A DNA stretch of 48,586 bases, from NCBI GenBank assembly GCA_038061865.1, contig JBBTYI010000011.1, positions 1-48,586 of the forward strand, written 5' to 3'. Shown here in pieces: positions 2,991 to 18,909 of this stretch. The notes beneath the pieces are model-generated. The model was not told the DNA's origin. It did no database searches and worked only from the letters and a program-made list of their open reading frames with translations. How positions within the stretch are numbered: position 1 is the first letter of the stretch; every line of letters begins with the position of its first letter. Made by a program: the position numbers and the translations under genes. This stretch comes from Patescibacteria group bacterium. GTDB taxonomy: Bacteria; Patescibacteriota; Minisyncoccia; 2-02-FULL-40-12; IGHO2-01-FULL-4-A.

Positions 2991-5450
2991 CTATTCTGGT
3001 TCGAGTTCTCTGTCCATTGCCAAATCGCCGGTATAGATGGTCTTGCCGTTGAAACTGAAACGGATTGGATCCGCGCCGGTGCCGGATTGTTTTTGCCAAA
3101 GCAAACTGTAGTTTCCGTCCGCGGCCGGCGGCGTTTGATAATTGACGATTACTGATTTGTTTTCGCCGGGCTTAATCAGCAACCAGAAACCGAACACCGT
3201 TTTGTCCGATTCCTCAAACACCTCCACCCCGGCAAAGGGGCTGAAGGCCGTCGCCTCCAGCGCGTTTAACTCTGGGTCGCTTTTGAAATTATAATCCTCG
3301 TAGCCCACCAGCGGCCGATAGTTTGTCAGCGAATGCCCCTCAATACTTTTGAACGCCGAGCCCTTGGGAACATAGACGCGGATATAAGTCGGACTGACTT
3401 TATTATAAAATCCGTATTGGGAGCTGCCGCCGTTATGCCGCCGGTTAATGGTCAGCCGGTTGTCCGAACCGCTAATTGACGGCTCCACTTGCAAGTCAAA
3501 GGAGCTGTCAATCACGGCATCGGTTTTTGAACCTCTCACGTTTGAAAAAACGATTTGGAGATAATCGCCGCTTGGTTTTTTCATTTCCCCGCCCAGACCG
3601 TTTTGCACGGCGAATTTTTCCAAGTCCGGATTGTTAAAGTAAGCCAGGATATGTTTTTGGGCGGCGGCTTCGGCCAAAATCCGGAAAATTTTCAGCCAGC
3701 CGTCGCCGGTTTGCTCTTTTAATTTAGCAAAAAGCCGCGGTTGAAACTCTTTTAATATGGTCTTGGGCTGGGCGCGATTATCGCCGTACTCAACCTCGCT
3801 TTGAATTTCGGCCAAGAAGTTTCCCCCGTCAAGCGTTAGCTTATACTGCGGCATTTCAATCGGCCCGACGATATCAATAATTTTGCCGATGACGTCGGGG
3901 GTTACCGTCAAAATGCCATCTACCAGTGAGCCGCCGCCTTTGCGATAAAACTCCTGGACCTTACGGGCCGAGACGGGAAAATCGGCAAACCAGTTGGCGT
4001 CGCGCATGCCCCAGTTGGGGGTGATGTGCTGCAACGGCCGAGGCGGCATAATGTTTTCTTTCAGCTGGCCGTCAATATTATAAGTGTCGTCCACCACTAC
4101 CTCCTTGAGCATGCCGTCGGCAAATGTCACCAAAGCATAACTGCCCGGAAAGCCGCCGGTGGGTCTTAACTCGCTGTTGTTTTGGAGTAAAACTAAATAT
4201 TTTCTGGTTCCTCCGCTGCCGACCACGCCCAGCAAAAAATCAGTATAGTCAATGGCGCTGCCGATGTATTGCTGAAACTCGGGAATTTTTCCTTTGAAAT
4301 CAATAAAAACCTGCTGTTTGTCGGGCGGCAGCAGGCTAACGTCTATATCCGCCAGTAGTGTACCGGCTTGGTTGATGTTTTTATCGGCAAAAACCAAAAC
4401 TTCCTTAAGTTCGCCCATCAGTTTGCCGGTCGGTTCTTGAGTTAAAATATTTAGCTTGGAAAGAGCGCCGGCCGCCAGTGATAAATTCTCGCCGGCTTTA
4501 GCCAAAAGTTTGCCCGCTTTGGTTAAATTGTTAGCCGACTTTAATTTTTCCAGGCCCGGCAGGTTGCCGAAGTTGGACAAAAAAGAAGCCCCCAGGCCGT
4601 TTAGGCTAGCGGCTACCTGTTCAAAATCGTCGTAGGCTAAGGCAAAATTGTCGGCCGCCTGCCGAAAATTAAAGTCGGTTAGATTGGCTTTAGCCTGCTC
4701 CAGGTTAGCCACGGCCCGATTGCCATCCTGCACGATCTCATTTTTGAAATTCAGTCCGTTCTGGTAGAGCAGGGTACCGGCCAGAAACAAAACCGCCAAG
4801 GATACGGTCATTATCAGCCGTTTCCGCCGCCAAGCATTGCCAAATCGGAATCTTTTTTTGTCTTCCCGTTTGGCTGTTCGGAGCACTATTTCAAGTTCGG
4901 CTCCGGCACTGGAAAATTGACTACGCGCCTGCGGATAAACATAGCCGGCGGGAGTATCAATTTTTGGCGCTTGCCAGAATTGTTCCAACGGCGCTGGGCG
5001 GTACGGCTTGGATGAGGGTGCTAATTGGCGGCGCGCTTTAGCCGACTCGGCGGAAACAGTAATTTGGGTCTTTTTGCGCTGCGCATACAAGCGCGGACGG
5101 GATTGCTGGCGGGGCGCGTGCAGTTCGCCGCCGACTCGGGCCAATTCAGCGGTTACGTCAACCGGCTGGGAAATCAGCTTTTCAAATTCTTTCAAAACCA
5201 GCAGTTTTGGATCGGGCGGCGGCGGAGATGTTTCAAAAATTTCAGCCACTGCGGCCGGTGGGGCCGGCTTTAACGTTTTTGCTCTGGCCGGGCGAATCCA
5301 CGGCGTCGGTTCTGTTTTTGCTAATTCAACTTTCTCTCTTAAATTCAACTCTTGTCCAATTGCCCCGATTTTTTCAAAATTCAAAACTCCCGATTCAGTC
5401 ATCGGTCGCACATCAAACAATGCCTCAAGAATATTTCTGGTCGGAGGCAC
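2991..5450 (-). CDS. DUF4012-domain membrane-anchored protein
   Basis: TM segment near aa 213-228, then YLVLLQNNSELRPTGGFPGSY and RDANWFADFP motifs. Confidence 0.85.
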   Translation of the reverse strand: MPPTRNILEALFDVRPMTESGVLNFEKIGAIGQELNLREKVELAKTEPTPWIRPARAKTLKPAPPAAVAEIFETSPPPPDPKLLVLKEFEKLISQPVDVTAELARVGGELHAPRQQSRPRLYAQRKKTQITVSAESAKARRQLAPSSKPYRPAPLEQFWQAPKIDTPAGYVYPQARSQFSSAGAELEIVLRTAKREDKKRFRFGNAWRRKRLIMTVSLAVLFLAGTLLYQNGLNFKNEIVQDGNRAVANLEQAKANLTDFNFRQAADNFALAYDDFEQVAASLNGLGASFLSNFGNLPGLEKLKSANNLTKAGKLLAKAGENLSLAAGALSKLNILTQEPTGKLMGELKEVLVFADKNINQAGTLLADIDVSLLPPDKQQVFIDFKGKIPEFQQYIGSAIDYTDFLLGVVGSGGTRKYLVLLQNNSELRPTGGFPGSYALVTFADGMLKEVVVDDTYNIDGQLKENIMPPRPLQHITPNWGMRDANWFADFPVSARKVQEFYRKGGGSLVDGILTVTPDVIGKIIDIVGPIEMPQYKLTLDGGNFLAEIQSEVEYGDNRAQPKTILKEFQPRLFAKLKEQTGDGWLKIFRILAEAAAQKHILAYFNNPDLEKFAVQNGLGGEMKKPSGDYLQIVFSNVRGSKTDAVIDSSFDLQVEPSISGSDNRLTINRRHNGGSSQYGFYNKVSPTYIRVYVPKGSAFKSIEGHSLTNYRPLVGYEDYNFKSDPELNALEATAFSPFAGVEVFEESDKTVFGFWLLIKPGENKSVIVNYQTPPAADGNYSLLWQKQSGTGADPIRFSFNGKTIYTGDLAMDRELEPE

Positions 5451-5453
5451 TTT

Positions 5454-6536
5454 TTAATTATACACTATAGCGAGAATTTTTTCCTTGAAGACCTGCTTAT
5501 CAAATTTGAGCGCGTGTTCCCGGATTTTGTCCGGTGCAAAGCCGGTTTCATAATAGCGGCCGACAGTTAAAGCCAGATCAATCTCGCTTTGTTCGTCAAA
5601 AAACACCCCGGTTTGGCCGTCGACCACTGTTTCCAGCGCGCCGCCGGCCCGGTAGGCAATCACCGGCCGGCCGGACGCCATCGCTTCCAGCGGCACCAAG
5701 CCAAAATCCTCCTCTTGGGGAAAAATCACGGCTTGGCATTTCGCGTAAAGTTCAGGCAGTTTGTAATCGGAAACTAGGCCGAGAAAGATAATATTAGCAT
5801 TGCCATTGGCTAGCCGTTTCAAGCGGTTCAGCTCGGGCCCGTCGCCAACGATAATGAGTTTTTTGCCGATGGCGTTAAAAACCTTGACCGCCAGGTCAAA
5901 GCGCTTGTAGGCGACCAGTCGGCCAACCATCAGAAAGTAGTCATCTTGCTTGGGTGAGACGTGGTACTTACTGACATCAATGGGCGGGTAAATAATGCTG
6001 GCTTTCTGCTGATAATATTTTTTTATGCGCGTCCGCACAAACTCGGAGATAGCCACAAATTGGTCCACCCGCAAAGCCGCTTCCTTGTCCCAGATGCGCA
6101 GATAGGCGATAAAAGCGGGGATTAGTTTTTTAACCGGCCAGGGATATTTGAATTCGTCTATGTAGCGGTGGCTGTCATCCCAGAGAAAGCGAGTCGGCGT
6201 CAGGCAGTAGTTGATGTGGCGGGTGTGCGGCTTGGTGATAATGCCTTTGGCGAACGACGCCGACACCGACAGCACCGTATCAAAGTAGGATAAATCAAAC
6301 TGTTCGATGGCCAGCGGCATCAGCAGCGGAAAAATCCGGTGATGGCGGCGGCTGAAAGGGATTTTTTGGAGAAAAGAGGTGTGAATTTCGCGGCCCTTGA
6401 ACACTCTACCGGTGGCGCGCTCATCATAAAGCAAAGTATAAATCGGCGCTTCGGGAAACATTTCGCACAGTGTCTCCAGCACCCGCTCCGCCCCGCCGTA
6501 TTGATTTAGGTAATCGTGTACTAAAGCGATTTTCAT
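5454..6536 (-). CDS. Glycosyltransferase family 4
   Basis: MKIALVHDYLNQYGGAERVL and EDFGLVPLEAMASGRPVI. Confidence 0.93.
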   Translation of the reverse strand: MKIALVHDYLNQYGGAERVLETLCEMFPEAPIYTLLYDERATGRVFKGREIHTSFLQKIPFSRRHHRIFPLLMPLAIEQFDLSYFDTVLSVSASFAKGIITKPHTRHINYCLTPTRFLWDDSHRYIDEFKYPWPVKKLIPAFIAYLRIWDKEAALRVDQFVAISEFVRTRIKKYYQQKASIIYPPIDVSKYHVSPKQDDYFLMVGRLVAYKRFDLAVKVFNAIGKKLIIVGDGPELNRLKRLANGNANIIFLGLVSDYKLPELYAKCQAVIFPQEEDFGLVPLEAMASGRPVIAYRAGGALETVVDGQTGVFFDEQSEIDLALTVGRYYETGFAPDKIREHALKFDKQVFKEKILAIVYN

Positions 6537-6592
6537 CAACCCGAGCCTAACAGAACTGATTTAAAAATAAAAGTGTTGCATTAGTTACCAAC

Positions 6593-6628
6593 ATAGACAA
6601 AATTATACGATCGTATAAAATTGTCTAT
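6593..6628. repeat. 36-bp palindrome, copy 1; abuts the ATG of the PaaX/Cas2-like gene and contains a TAGACA-N16-TAAAAT promoter-like arrangement
   Basis: ATAGACAAAATTATACGA|TCGTATAAAATTGTCTAT, with 2 mismatched pairs. Confidence 0.9.
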
Positions 6629-7171
6629 ATGAGTAGCAAAGAAAAATTCTTCTCGATTAGTCGGGCAATTTTGGCAACTTTGTGGGAGGCCGGAGAGATT
6701 ACCATCAAAGGGTTCTTCCCCCACCCCTATTATCACCATTTTTGCCACCATCGGAAGAAACTGTCCATCCACTCGAAATTTTATACTCTCAAAAAAGCCG
6801 GACTGATTAAGAAAAGGGGGGCCGATACTTTTTCTCTGACGCCCCGGGGGCAAAAAGAAGCATTTTGGTCAGCACTCAATGCCAAATTAGTTCTTCATGC
6901 TCCTCATCGGCAAAAGTGGGATGGCTATTGGCGGATAATATTTTTCGATATACCGGAAAAGAAAAGGCGATTACGAGATGATTTACGTCAAATTTTAAAA
7001 ACCCTTGGTTTTAAAGAACTCCAACGCAGTGTTTGGGTCACGCCGTATAAAATCCCGGAACTGCTAAACGAATTGCTATGGGAGGAAAAAATAAAACATT
7101 ACACGCGTTTCATTACGGCGAAGGAAATCGACTATGATCGAGATCTTAAGAAGCACTTCAAATTCATATAG
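6629..7171 (+). CDS. PaaX-like protein: wHTH-like N-terminus plus Cas2/VapD-like C-terminal domain
   Basis: LKKAGLI...FSLTPRG, then KWDGYWRIIFFDIPEKKRRLRDDLRQILKTLGFKELQRSVWV. Confidence 0.85.
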   Translation: MSSKEKFFSISRAILATLWEAGEITIKGFFPHPYYHHFCHHRKKLSIHSKFYTLKKAGLIKKRGADTFSLTPRGQKEAFWSALNAKLVLHAPHRQKWDGYWRIIFFDIPEKKRRLRDDLRQILKTLGFKELQRSVWVTPYKIPELLNELLWEEKIKHYTRFITAKEIDYDRDLKKHFKFI

Positions 7172-7205
7172 ACAAAATCATACGATCGTATGGTTTTGTC
7201 TATAT
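7166..7205. repeat. 40-bp palindrome, copy 2; overlaps the TAG stop of the PaaX/Cas2-like gene
   Basis: ATATAGACAAAATCATACGA|TCGTATGGTTTTGTCTATAT, 1 mismatched pair; 31/36 identical to copy 1. Confidence 0.9.
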
Positions 7206-7240
7206 AAAGTCCACCTGTAAATATACATAAAATATAAAAG

Positions 7241-8626
7241 TCAAACCGCTGAGCGGTCGCGGAAAAGTTTTAGAAAAGTCAGAATTAAAATTTTGATGTC
7301 TTGTCCCAGTGACCAGTTTTCAATATACAAAGTATCCAAGGCGACTTCTTTTTCAAACGACAGATCGGAACTGCCGGAAACTTGAGCCAAACCGGTAACG
7401 CCGGCTTTAATCGCCAACACCCGTTTGTGATGTTTCTGATATTTTTCAATTTCGTCCGGCTGGTGCGGGCGCGGGCCGACCAGCGAGATGTTGCCCTTGA
7501 ACACATTCCAGAATTGGGGCAGTTCGTCCAGCCGATAGCGGCGAAGTACGCGCCCGACCTGCGTTACCCGCGGGTCATTTTTCATTTTAAAAAGCGGGCT
7601 GTCTTGGCGCTCGTTGAATTGCGCCAGGTAAGGTTTCAGCGCTTCGGCGTTCTTGATCATTGAGCGAAACTTGAGCAGATTAAATTCCTTGGTGCCGCTC
7701 ACCCGCCGCAGACGGACAAACACCGGGCCTTCGCTTTGCCATTTGACAGCCAAAGAAATCACGGCAAATATCGGCAGTAATACCGCCAGACTGAACAATG
7801 CCCCCAAAACATCCAAGCCTCTTTTTATGACTTTGCCCCAGCCGTCCAGCGCCGTGCGCTTCAGTTCCAAAAGCGGCGCTCCGGCAATCGTGTCCACGGC
7901 AAAATTGGTGGTCAGCGTTTGATAGAGATTGGGGACGAATTTGAAAACCAGGTGCTGTTCATGACAAAAGTCCACCAGTTCCACAACTTTATCGGCGGGA
8001 TAATTGGGATTGGCCAAAATCACCTCATCCACCCCCGGATTGCCGATAGCCGCCTTTATTTCCCCCACTTCCGGGTTGACCAAGTGTTTAATTATCCGAT
8101 AGCCGTAAGCGGGATTGGCTCGGATATCGCTAACCAGGCGCCGGGAAATTTCGTCTTCGCCGATAACCATCACCCGGTGCACGCCCAAGTCGTAGCGCGA
8201 CACCAGATAACGTTGGAGATAGCGCATTACCAGTCGTCCGAATGACACAAACACAATCGCTAACAGCCAGGCGCCTAACACCAGAAAACGGGAATTGAAC
8301 AGTTCGGCCCGCAGGAAAATATAGACAATGACGGCCATAATCGCCGCCGAGGAGGCAATCGCTACGCGCGCCAGTTCGGTAACGGTCTTGTGCGTGCTGG
8401 GCAGGCGGTAGAGGCCAGACAGCGCATAAGCGCCGACAAACAAACCGGAAACGGCCAGTACCAGCAGCAGATAGCGGTCAAACGGCAGGTTGAACTCAAA
8501 CAGCACCGGCCGGAAAGCCGACAGGATGCGGGTGCGCAGAAAATAGGTGGTAATGCCTGCCAGCACCAGCATCAGCCAGTCCACCGGCAGGAGCAGGACA
8601 CTGAAAATCAGCTCGGCTTTTTTCAT
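7241..8626 (-). CDS. Polyprenyl-phosphate glycosylphosphotransferase (WcaJ/CpsE-type sugar transferase)
   Basis: Four N-terminal TMs and KFRSM, NDPRVT, LDELPQFWNV, SLVGPRP motifs. Start moved to MKKAEL because the longer start lies within a terminator. Confidence 0.93.
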   Translation of the reverse strand: MKKAELIFSVLLLPVDWLMLVLAGITTYFLRTRILSAFRPVLFEFNLPFDRYLLLVLAVSGLFVGAYALSGLYRLPSTHKTVTELARVAIASSAAIMAVIVYIFLRAELFNSRFLVLGAWLLAIVFVSFGRLVMRYLQRYLVSRYDLGVHRVMVIGEDEISRRLVSDIRANPAYGYRIIKHLVNPEVGEIKAAIGNPGVDEVILANPNYPADKVVELVDFCHEQHLVFKFVPNLYQTLTTNFAVDTIAGAPLLELKRTALDGWGKVIKRGLDVLGALFSLAVLLPIFAVISLAVKWQSEGPVFVRLRRVSGTKEFNLLKFRSMIKNAEALKPYLAQFNERQDSPLFKMKNDPRVTQVGRVLRRYRLDELPQFWNVFKGNISLVGPRPHQPDEIEKYQKHHKRVLAIKAGVTGLAQVSGSSDLSFEKEVALDTLYIENWSLGQDIKILILTFLKLFRDRSAV

Positions 8627-8664
8627 CGGATTCACTATATACCCAAACTGGATCGGCTTCAAAC

Positions 8665-8690
8665 AAAAACTCCGCATTAGCGGAGTTTTT
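8665..8690. terminator. Intrinsic terminator downstream of rnpB
   Basis: AAAAACTCCGC-ATTA-GCGGAGTTTTT. Confidence 0.8.
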
Positions 8691-8778
8691 GCGGCTTGGC
8701 AAAGCTATAAGCCGAATTCTGTATTTGTGTGATTATTTATCTGGGCCGGCCATTGCTGGACGGCTCAAGCGGCACTCC

Positions 8779-8848
8779 GTTTACACAATCGCCAATCTTT
8801 AATTTCTAATTTAGAAATTAGTAATTAGTAATTGGTCGTTGTATAAAC
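8779..8848. repeat. Heptamer-arm hairpin element inside rnpB
   Basis: GTTTACACAA...7-bp periodic arms...TTGTATAAAC. Confidence 0.8.
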
Positions 8849-9120
8849 AGCCCGGCCTTGCACCAGACAGGGTTTAGCACGTCTCGCCGTCACCGGCGGA
8901 CGATGGCGTTCGCCAACTTTTCACCCGTGCCCAGCTCCAGTTTTCGCAAACTGGAGCTGGGTCGGAATTGTCTCTGTGCCACTTTCCCTAAGCTTTGATC
9001 AATCGCTCTTGTCTTAAGAACAAGAACTATCAATCTTATACCCGGTGGCCGTTAGCCACTGTCTGCTTACCAGCTCCAGTTTTCGCAAACTGGGGTTGGT
9101 GGTGTTCGGACTTTCCTCCA

Positions 9121-9207
9121 GCTGACGCAACAACCAACTGCTAACTACTAATCTCTAATTTAGATTCTACTAAAGATTGGGGATTAGAAGTTGGCGATTG
9201 CGTAAGC
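9121..9207. repeat. Heptamer-arm hairpin element inside rnpB (P3 region)
   Basis: GCTGACGCAA...7-bp periodic arms...TTGCGTAAGC. Confidence 0.8.
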
Positions 9208-9238
9208 CAGCAATCACCCGCTTTGCCAAACTGCTTGC

Positions 9239-9247
9239 ATTATAGCA
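9239..9247 (-). promoter_or_regulatory. Extended -10 promoter for rnpB
   Basis: TGCTATAAT overlaps the rnhA stop codon, about 10 nt upstream of P1. Confidence 0.65.
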
Positions 9248-10811: not shown

Positions 10812-11494
10812 AGCGCGGAAACTACTTTCAAAACCTCTTCAAACTGCACTGCGTCTAAGCTGGCTTGGCCGACTATGGCGCCGGAGATTTCAGAATGTTT
10901 GAGGAAATCGCCTACATTGGCAGAGTTAACACTTCCTCCGTACAAAATAGTTTTCTTACCGGTGAGCCGCGCAATAATCTCGACAGCGGCTAGCGTATTT
11001 TCCGGCTTGTCCGGCTCGGCGCCGGGACTAGCGCTGATGGCCCAGACCGGTTCGTAGCAAATCAATATATTCACGACTTGCGATGTTATGAGATTAGCCA
11101 GGTTTTTATTCAGCTGTTCTCCCAGTACGGCCTGTCGGTTATCGCCTTTTGTTTTCTCACCAATTAGCAAAATCGGGGTAACACCAGAATTGAGGGCGAT
11201 TTTTAGTTTTCGGTTAATGATCTCATCCGTATCCCCTCCGCCTGTTGGCGGATAGCGCCGGTCGGAATGACCAACCAAAACATATTGCACGCCAAAATTG
11301 TCTCCTCCAGCAGTCCAAAAAATATCTTGAGTTCCGTTAGCTCCTAATTCTTTTACAAACTCGGCGGGCGGACAGATCACGGTTTTGATATTTGGATATT
11401 TCGCCGCCGCTTCCGTTTCCGTTTCAAACAACGCTTGCGCTTCAGCCAGTGTGTCGGGATGTGCTTTCCAGTTTGCGATAATAATTTTGTTCAT
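10808..11494 (-). CDS. tpiA: Triosephosphate isomerase (shortened)
   Basis: ANWK, GHSDRR, YEPVWAI and LYGGSV. Confidence 0.92.
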   Translation of the reverse strand: MNKIIIANWKAHPDTLAEAQALFETETEAAAKYPNIKTVICPPAEFVKELGANGTQDIFWTAGGDNFGVQYVLVGHSDRRYPPTGGGDTDEIINRKLKIALNSGVTPILLIGEKTKGDNRQAVLGEQLNKNLANLITSQVVNILICYEPVWAISASPGAEPDKPENTLAAVEIIARLTGKKTILYGGSVNSANVGDFLKHSEISGAIVGQASLDAVQFEEVLKVVSAL

Positions 11495-18552: not shown

Positions 18553-18909
18553 TTAAAATTTAATTCCGCCTTTGCGCAAACCCTCGGCCAGGGCTTTGAC
18601 CCGGCCGTGATATTTGTAGCCGCCGCGGTCAAAAACGATCCTGGTCACACCGGCTTCTTTCAGTTTATCAGCCAAGCTTTTGCCAATTGCTCCGGCTAGG
18701 TCAGTTTTCTTGCCTTTCATTTTGCTTTTTTTCTCGGACACGATTTTACTGCTAACCAGGGTTTTGCCGATACTGTCGTCAACGGCTTGGACGAAAATAT
18801 GGCGGTTGCTCCGGAAAACCGAAATCCGCGGCACGATTGCCGTGCCAGATACTCTAGCTCTGACCCGTTTATGCCGTCTTATTCTTTTTTGCCGTTTGCT
18901 GTTTTCCAT
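18553..18909 (-). CDS. rplR: 50S ribosomal protein L18
   Basis: PRISVFRSN and FDRGGYKYHGRV. Confidence 0.96.
   Translation of the reverse strand: MENSKRQKRIRRHKRVRARVSGTAIVPRISVFRSNRHIFVQAVDDSIGKTLVSSKIVSEKKSKMKGKKTDLAGAIGKSLADKLKEAGVTRIVFDRGGYKYHGRVKALAEGLRKGGIKF

Follow-up and report, generated by a model that had tools for sequence, protein, structure and literature searches.

According to one published account (PMC9493321), PaaX of Escherichia coli has the site TGATTC(N27)GAATCA, which spans 39 bp, and represses its own promoter, Px. RAYT genes, as described in PMC2817692, are flanked by two cognate palindromes and co-vary with the repeats called REP (repetitive extragenic palindromic) sequences, which are found only together with the gene. 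The Rickettsia palindromic elements (RPEs), of about 150 bp, are reported in PMC10969869 to lie in frame within unrelated housekeeping genes. Here we describe a locus that recalls all of these systems, in a stretch of 48,586 nt (hereafter the window) of contig JBBTYI010000011.1 from an ultra-small groundwater bacterium of the Patescibacteria group (assembly GCA_038061865.1). In it, a gene for a 180-residue relative of PaaX, here called mini-PaaX, stands between two copies of a 36-bp palindrome. The unit resembles a PaaX-type autorepressor and a REP/RAYT pair together and is a member of neither. The reading that we favour, with a confidence a little above even, is that mini-PaaX is a dimeric palindrome binder that represses its own gene at the upstream palindrome (copy 1), that the downstream palindrome (copy 2) serves as a second site and 3′ hairpin, and that the protein is needed for a REP-like spread or upkeep of the palindrome.

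The palindrome pair delimits the gene to the nucleotide, as the original prediction had it. Copy 1, ATAGACAAAATTATACGATCGTATAAAATTGTCTAT (6593-6628), is loopless with a CGATCG centre, and its last base directly precedes the ATG (6629) of the open reading frame (ORF; 6629-7171, plus strand), whereas copy 2, ATAGACAAAATCATACGATCGTATGGTTTTGTCTAT (7168-7203), holds the TAG stop (7169-7171). The cores of the two copies are identical at 31 of 36 positions, compared with a maximum of 18 of 36 between copy 1 and control windows from the same locus, and they depart from perfect symmetry at two positions in copy 1 and at one in copy 2. A degenerate 36-nt pattern matches nothing else in the window, and dinucleotide-preserving shuffles gave 0/100. 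Elsewhere in the assembly (G000 in our numbering; 529 kb, 21 contigs, 89.5% complete) a third, solo copy lies on another contig (C6:8193-8228; 33/36 to the pattern), starting 3 nt after the thrS stop and ending 21 nt before the miaA ATG. The genome has 3 palindrome sites (0 for the control) and one mini-PaaX homologue. The bases that precede the solo copy (ATAGAC) resemble the opening bases of the palindrome (GTAGAC). The absence of paa genes, cas1 and an array, first claimed for the window, extends further: no Cas1, PaaA/PaaC or CRISPR-like array was found in the whole assembly at its 89.5% completeness. The idea that the palindrome centres are type II restriction sites was dropped, CGATCG not being avoided in this genome (84 observed, 93.9 expected).

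This layout is a trait of the family, each locus having a palindrome of its own. Two sets of loci were used. The first comprises all 67 homologue matches, which come from 33 of 61 related genomes (four loci are cut by a contig end), and the second 80 loci from a larger genome collection, reduced to 74 by removal of 6 duplicates. Under a strict rule (arm of at least 14, mismatches of at most 16%, loop of at most 4), 23 loci of the first set have a palindrome at each gene end, 13 have one just upstream, 11 just downstream and 20 have none at either end; the corresponding counts for the second set are 22, 11, 17 and 24. Palindrome density in the first set is 2.79/kb in the gene-end windows (73 in 26.2 kb) as opposed to 0.19/kb elsewhere (32 in 165 kb), and in the second set 2.51 versus 0.19/kb. 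A relaxed test that presupposes no palindrome, taking the best 30-mer common to the upstream and downstream windows with a threshold of at least 24/30 and up to six controls, finds a shared end sequence at 90 of 133 testable loci and at 6 of 133 controls. Copies agree at a mean of 0.86 within a locus (n=23) and of 0.44 between loci (n=506), so that the expectation that homologues would each be bracketed by their own palindrome pair was borne out. While the arms are private to each locus, the middle is formed by a short CG-type palindrome, examples being CGATCG, CGGCCG, CGTACG, CTATAG, CATATG and CAATTG.

The bare palindrome has also been found away from the gene, most clearly in G004 and G014, which represent two other genera of the same family and carry a mini-PaaX gene 64% and 60% identical to the one described here. 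In both, the gene is flanked by the palindrome CACTATCATTTTACCACGATCGTGGTAAAATGATAGTG, sites of which (at most 3 mismatches) number 14 in G004 and 15 in G014, with 6 and 9 of them perfect and 0 for a reversed-pattern control. Long ORFs contain 5 of the 14 sites and 4 of the 15, each time in the stop-free frame (peptide LSFYHDRGKMI). The ORFs concerned encode SecA (in both genomes), MiaA, an MnmA-type tRNA methyltransferase, phosphoglucomutase (PGM), a Wzy-like ligase, RNase HII, YchF and TGT. For PGM and TGT no match was found in our genome at 1e-10; in all seven palindrome-bearing ORFs that do have an orthologue there, the peptide coincides with a gap of about 11-34 residues in the alignment, which indicates that a bare palindrome of about 36-38 bp is what was inserted. 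G004 and G014 have only three sites in orthologous positions. G004's own palindrome lies in frame within miaA (C7:11976-12009), the gene that the solo copy of our genome precedes, which may be coincidence or a target preference.

Each palindrome type is confined to genomes that carry the cognate flanked gene: the CACTATCATTTTACCACGATCGTGGTAAAATGATAGTG type occurs in 2 of 61 genomes, exactly those two, and the type described here in 1 of 61 (0 of the 60 relatives), again exactly the one with the gene, which suggests that the protein is needed to spread or keep its palindrome. Among eight relative families examined the number of copies ranges from 0 to 15; apart from the two large ones, it is 5 in G011 (3 solo), 3 in G056 (1 solo), 2 in a second G004 family (1 solo), 2 in G038 (none solo), 1 in G023 and 0 in G016. 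The own-type palindrome is absent from the thrS-miaA junction of 5 relatives, and one metagenome contig carries a solo copy of it upstream of an asnA-like ORF. The centre of G011's three solo copies (C2:29770, C19:1641, C6:9483) is the symmetric CGATCG, and that of its gene-flanking pair (C12:6659, C12:7245) the asymmetric CGACCG.

The likeness to REP/RAYT lies in a single-copy gene between two cognate palindromes, in their co-variation, in a repeat found only with its gene and in dispersed bare repeats. The differences are a fold that is unrelated (winged helix plus Cas2-like domain, no HUH/Y1 transposase domain), 1-15 palindromes instead of more than 100 per genome, and repeats that are loopless, duplex-type palindromes of 36-50 bp, some of them intragenic and in frame. 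The last property is shared with the RPEs, likewise palindromic repeats of a reduced genome inserted in frame in housekeeping genes, but the present unit is only 36-38 bp long and is tied to the gene of a binding-type protein, none being named for RPEs in the part of that source available.

The protein between the palindromes joins a winged helix-turn-helix (wHTH) domain at its N-terminus (about residues 8-75) to a Cas2-like PaaX_M domain (about residues 95-170). In Pfam, PaaX_M (PF20803) matches residues 95-169 with E 4.1e-23 (81.7 bits, cut-off 24), Cas2 (PF09827) stays below its cut-off (21.5 versus 23.8 bits), and PaaX_C, the C-terminal effector-binding domain, gives no match, the protein stopping at residue 180. 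The NCBIfam cas2 model TIGR01573 is passed with 27.8 bits (cut-off 24.5) over profile positions 3-43 of 96 only, and the full-length PaaX equivalog TIGR02277 is far from reached (37.6 versus 264.55 bits); with PADLOC, Cas2 models alone match the protein. As a PDB sequence search with the single protein found nothing significant, the relationship to solved structures had to come from profile and fold searches. An AlphaFold2 (AF2) model built from 74 homologues (predicted local distance difference test, pLDDT, 90.8) has E. coli PaaX as its best PDB fold match (8a39, E 9e-5), followed by Rv0674 (3kfw), 3l09, MarR-type wHTH proteins, which match the N-terminal part, and Cas2/VapD, which match the C-terminal one.

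Residues F106, D107, P109, R116, Q132 and S134 are invariant in all 74 homologues, and a profile search against PDB sequences pairs them with the motif found in a true Cas2, 6jhz (IVFFDLP...QKSVY). The Asp of this motif is the metal-binding residue of Cas2. The same place reads LLLSEG in E. coli PaaX and IVTSIG in Rv0674. Judged by its sequence, mini-PaaX is a PaaX architecture minus the effector domain, yet with the Cas2 FD(I/V)P..Q.S motif that PaaX proteins have lost. Modelling supports a homodimer: the dimer model scores 0.42, with the best of 3 controls at 0.00, and the mark used is reached by 20 of 30 proteins solved as one-chain pairs but by just 1 of the 23 whose structures are single chains. 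At least 93% of contacts are common to the runs, with a partner pLDDT of at least 78; since solved Cas2 dimers exist, the model's pass may derive from these structures. The predicted interface (residues 100, 103, 105, 107, 131-132, 134-135 and 160-169) belongs to the Cas2-like domain.

Compared with PaaX, then, mini-PaaX has in common the wHTH plus Cas2-like middle domain, the (predicted) dimer, the closest structural match and a very long inverted-repeat site, given as 39 bp for PaaX and measuring 36-40 bp for the mini-PaaX palindromes. It differs in its length (180 residues without the C-terminal effector domain versus about 305-316), in a genome where no paa genes were found (PaaA/PaaC searched, assembly 89.5% complete), in the retained Cas2 motif, and in palindromes that stand on both sides of the gene and are also dispersed, even within genes. 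With Cas2 it shares the beta1-alpha1-beta2 motif, including the Asp at the end of beta1, and in the model a dimer through the same face; unlike Cas2 it is fused to a wHTH, and its assembly holds no cas1, array or other cas genes. By context, mini-PaaX is not a CRISPR Cas2.

The family has many members. Searching 1.84 billion representatives with the 74-member profile returned 5,375 clusters (50% identity) at E <= 1e-10 and 6,990 at E <= 1e-3, and at least 592 stretches of the genome collection carry mini-PaaX homologues; among the matches listed, the titles name Yanofsky-, Doudna-, Uhr-, Zambryski-, Kaiser- and Moraniibacteria as well as Paceibacterota. Several divergent paralogues can occur within one genome of 0.5-1 Mb. 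The protein described here has a His/Cys-rich insert, FFPHPYYHHFCHH (6716-6757; residues 30-43), between helix 2 and the recognition helix. This insert may be a metal site, and its conservation, in the form HPY.H.FC.H, is limited to the closest subfamily; paralogues further away have instead a hydrophobic segment at the N-terminus that resembles a membrane anchor.

From a wHTH protein that is predicted to be dimeric, a symmetric site and a span equal to that of the PaaX operator we infer that mini-PaaX binds its own palindrome. Changes between orthologues are mirrored on all four half-sites, the inner arm differing between our genome and G011 on both sides of both copies. These two genomes share the outer arm GTCTAT and the wHTH motifs SRAILATL and SI[HY]S, despite the fact that our protein is less alike overall to that of G011 than to that of G004. 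In raw counts, E at residue 110 goes with an xCG centre in 65 of 71 cases, N or V at the same residue with CATATG in 11 of 12, and A at residue 133 with CGGCCG in 13 of 14; co-inheritance of the gene with its flanks may also underlie such links.

Copy 1 may double as the promoter of the gene. It contains the hexamers TAGACA-16-TAAAAT (6594-6621, plus strand; 10 of 12 matches), which end 7 nt before the ATG. A Shine-Dalgarno sequence would not fit in front of this start codon, and the match in copy 1 is the sole good promoter match upstream of it. The two bases that create TAAAAT are unique to copy 1, both copy 2 and the solo copy having TT. The earlier suggestion that copy 1 acts as a leaderless promoter is thus plausible at its own locus, where a promoter would overlap copy 1 and give a leaderless mRNA, although the 1.2-kb region as a whole is not enriched (2 promoter-like sites found, 2.1 expected from shuffles). 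Across the family, promoter matches of at least 9/12 were found in 12 of 45 upstream copies versus 3 of 45 downstream copies.

Copy 2, for its part, folds well as sense RNA, with a stem of 18 bp (-22.1 kcal/mol, z -8.2) in which the one asymmetry of the DNA becomes a G-U pair. Mismatches in the downstream copies of the family are more often of the G:T type, a wobble in the sense RNA, than of the A:C type (34 versus 17, p 0.024), whereas the upstream copies have 20 and 29 (upstream versus downstream, Fisher p 0.016), both p values being optimistic because the loci are related. Such sequence patterns suggest that the downstream copies are maintained as sense-transcript hairpins. In the positional orthologues without a downstream copy, the stop is followed by ordinary GC-rich hairpins, in keeping with copy 2 acting as a terminator or stabilizer.

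These observations could be accommodated as follows. Mini-PaaX would form a homodimer joined by its Cas2-like domains, with the two winged helices reading the outer arms of the 36-bp palindrome and the dimer axis lying over the CGATCG centre. At copy 1 (6593-6628), the candidate binding site that overlaps the gene's promoter, a bound dimer would silence its own gene because site and promoter overlap, shutting the TAGACA-16-TAAAAT promoter and giving autorepression of a probably leaderless gene. Copy 2 (7168-7203) would be another candidate site of this kind and, once transcribed, would form the mRNA's 3′ hairpin, acting as its terminator or stabilizer. Occasionally the bare palindrome of about 36-38 bp would be copied to new places in a REP-like manner, giving the one solo copy here and up to 13 in relatives, and the protein would be needed for this spread or for the upkeep of the copies. 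A bolder extension, which we regard as tentative and as having a good deal less than an even chance, is that mini-PaaX proteins are a large class of Cas2-fold, wHTH-guided dimeric DNA enzymes that would cut or nick their own palindrome at its CG-rich centre and in this way copy it around the genome.

Several results weigh against this account. A tree-aware test of the residue-base links (train/test mutual information scan and independent-pairs test on a 95-row tree) gave p 0.5-1, being underpowered with only 5-6 independent pairs. Across the family the promoter reading is not supported, upstream and downstream copies scoring 7.58 and 7.11 of 12 without a significant difference (paired Wilcoxon p 0.17). 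The conservation of the Cas2 motif may serve dimerization and not catalysis, because the motif residues sit in the predicted interface. No transposase-type domain was found in the protein: Pfam, NCBIfam and fold searches returned PaaX_M, Cas2 and wHTH only and no HUH/Y1 transposase fold. Target-site (direct) duplications, too, were not found at any of the 29 solo or flanking copies examined, which, together with a unit that is the bare palindrome, separates mini-PaaX palindromes from insertion sequence (IS)-type elements and MITEs (miniature transposable elements with inverted repeats). Two of the 29 copies have 9 extra complementary bases on each side. The palindrome pair is not obligatory and the bracket appears dispensable, since no pair was found at 43 of 133 loci in the relaxed test and the downstream copy is missing in the three positional orthologues, where an upstream copy alone remains, either of different sequence (G004, G023) or as a decayed remnant (G016). 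A joint of 6593 to 7168 was not seen in the contigs of 4 DNA runs, from which rare variants would have been dropped. Finally, with a copy number of only 3 in our genome, the solo copy could be an ordinary regulatory site.

That last point leads to the explanation that survives best among the rivals, which we consider unlikely but by no means negligible: mini-PaaX would be an ordinary autoregulated transcription factor of the PaaX type and its palindromes operators, with nothing mobile, copy 1 controlling its own gene and perhaps the divergent GT4 (glycosyltransferase family 4) operon, the solo copy controlling miaA, and copy 2 acting as a roadblock or looping site. The PaaX fold and a span that matches the 39-bp PaaX operator speak for it, as do the position of copy 1 in the divergent GT4/mini-PaaX intergenic region, that of the solo copy 21 nt upstream of the miaA ATG, and the mere 3 sites in the genome. 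It has difficulty, however, with the relatives, whose bare 36-38 bp units lie in frame in 9 housekeeping ORFs as insertions relative to the orthologues and of whose 14-15 sites only 3 are common to two genera. The thrS-miaA site is not conserved in 5 relatives either, several divergent paralogues with private palindromes in genomes of 0.5-1 Mb are a poor fit to regulons, and copy 2, located between two convergent gene ends, has no promoter there to control.

Less probable again, and in our judgement quite improbable, is a mobile or excisable single-gene cassette that moves, excises or inverts as a whole by recombination between the palindromes. The place of the gene was compared in 29 junction loci from relatives (a GT4 orthologue is present in 59 of 61 genomes), gaps being measured between tblastn ends. 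In 9 of the 29 the junction is tight, only 5-37 nt separating the sugar transferase stop from the GT4 start; 3 have a gap of 75-106 nt and 9 one of 167-798 nt, which holds other small ORFs but no mini-PaaX; in 5 the sugar transferase is out of reach (one being a contig end), and in 3 (G004, G023, G016) a mini-PaaX gene stands divergent from GT4, as here. One genus holds both genomes with the cassette (G016, G023) and genomes with the tight junction (G022, G025), for which reason the latter is the likely ancestral state. The search for empty sites between the two flanking genes, proposed with the original prediction, therefore succeeded, and because such sites exist the cassette can be regarded as an insertion that is gained or lost. 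That repeats define the ends of the unit to the base, and that other accessory ORFs occupy the same junction elsewhere, would also suit a mobile cassette.

Yet the gene itself stays put. There is one gene copy per specificity, and the position beside GT4 is kept across three genera, in which the positional orthologues are 58-60% identical to our protein, while the palindrome sequence turns over. The orientation is identical in all 4 carriers at the GT4 site, which leaves no sign of a switch by inversion. The empty junctions carry no single-palindrome scar, and three positional orthologues lack the downstream end. Excision was looked for in the contigs of 4 DNA runs from 2 studies over the region 5000-9000; one X2 contig covers the whole cassette (6353-7388) without a difference, other joints (e.g. 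6449 to 7343) have sides of less than 30 nt and lie away from the repeats, and neither an excision nor a deletion junction appeared between the palindromes, with the proviso that contigs drop rare variants. Of the mobile cassette first proposed, what stands is an insertion that can be gained or lost; what is not supported is movement of the whole unit, the spreading part being the bare palindrome and not the cassette. Of the findings that were to speak against it, fixation without empty alleles did not apply, whereas the absence of the downstream copy from homologues did, in three positional orthologues.

The junction between the sugar transferase and GT4 genes is an insertion hotspot for accessory genes. 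By eye, loci L197, L202, L210, L212, L214-L216 and L218 carry differing accessory ORFs there, among them a small membrane protein, a MarR-like protein, a nucleotidyltransferase/HEPN-like protein and a reverse-transcriptase fragment. In G010, the junction of 106 nt contains a palindrome of 40 nt, which was considered as a relic of the mini-PaaX family and rejected, as it looks, by eye, like an A-tract/T-tract terminator.

A hotspot is also part of a further explanation, to which we give very little credence, namely that another factor moves the palindromes as REP- or MITE-like hairpins, or that they are generic terminators, the gene merely sitting in a hotspot and its protein not recognizing them. 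Our genome does have two other dispersed palindrome families without a mini-PaaX partner, copy 2 does fold well as RNA, and in the positional orthologues its place after the stop is taken by ordinary terminator hairpins rich in GC. What this leaves aside is that 90 of 133 loci pair the gene with a palindrome whose sequence is specific to the locus, the confinement of each palindrome family to genomes with its flanked gene, and a palindrome length that suits a dimeric PaaX-type binder. The weakest proposal, a Cas2/VapD-type nuclease, toxin or defence component with palindromes that only control its expression, can draw on the retained Cas2 signature, a score above the NCBIfam cas2 cut-off and PADLOC matches to Cas2 models only, but it is most improbable given that the bracket encloses no partner gene, that the assembly has neither cas1 nor an array, and that the wHTH fusion and the dispersed cognate palindromes would be left unexplained.

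The first of the two other palindrome families in our genome consists of TTGAGGACACTCCTCAA, a 4-nt spacer and the complement, with full copies at C14:7449-7486, C16:12746-12783 and C9:2364-2401 and half-sites on C15, C19 and C5; it has no associated mini-PaaX gene, the genome having one only. The second is a REP-like hairpin family of at least 7 copies, composed of GCCCGCCTAAGTTTTGC, a loop and GCAAAAyTTrGGCGGGC, with sites that include C10:6934-6970, 11350-11386, 18555-18591 and 94242-94278, C15:7278-7314 and C6:4412-4448. Contigs of other samples differ in the presence or absence of GCCCGCCTAAGTTTTGC-type units within a non-coding stretch of 560 nt in the window (8680-9240), the variable inserts being seen near 8740-8960. 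In addition, a 30-nt hairpin, CCAGCTCCAGTTTTCGCAAACTGGAGCTGG, occurs twice (8931-8960 and 9070-9099), 139 nt apart, in non-coding sequence upstream of the sugar transferase gene.

The neighbours of the mini-PaaX gene are all on the minus strand, comprising the GT4 glycosyltransferase (5454-6539), which is the conserved left flank of the insertion site, the bacterial sugar transferase (7241-8677), which is the conserved right flank, and a DUF4012 protein. Where the sugar transferase gene ends, a terminator-like hairpin (7244-7258, minus strand) suggests that the interrupted minus-strand cluster now forms two transcription units. Antisense insertion into operons was tried as a rule for the family and given up, since both neighbours are on the strand of the gene at 56 of 101 loci and both on the opposite strand at only 13 of 101.

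A literature search at listing depth found no published description of a mini-PaaX/palindrome module, and no literature joining PaaX with Patescibacteria was found. Automatic pipelines now name such genes 'Cas2' or 'PaaX', and neither name is apt. The ultra-small bacteria of the candidate phyla radiation (CPR; Patescibacteria) have few regulators and few known mobile elements, and yet the mini-PaaX family is large in them. If the protein reads its own palindrome, the family would amount to a natural library of orthogonal pairs of a protein and a 36-bp site. If it also spreads the palindrome, this would be a second, independent instance of the REP/RAYT lifestyle, built on a Cas2 fold and not on an HUH transposase, and would be relevant to how Cas2 and the palindromic CRISPR repeats arose; should cutting by the Cas2 fold prove true as well, mini-PaaX would be a living relative of a pre-CRISPR Cas2 that recognizes palindromic repeats by itself. 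For the organisms themselves, the in-frame copies in secA, tgt, miaA, ychF, rnhB and mnmA mean that such elements remodel essential proteins in streamlined genomes.

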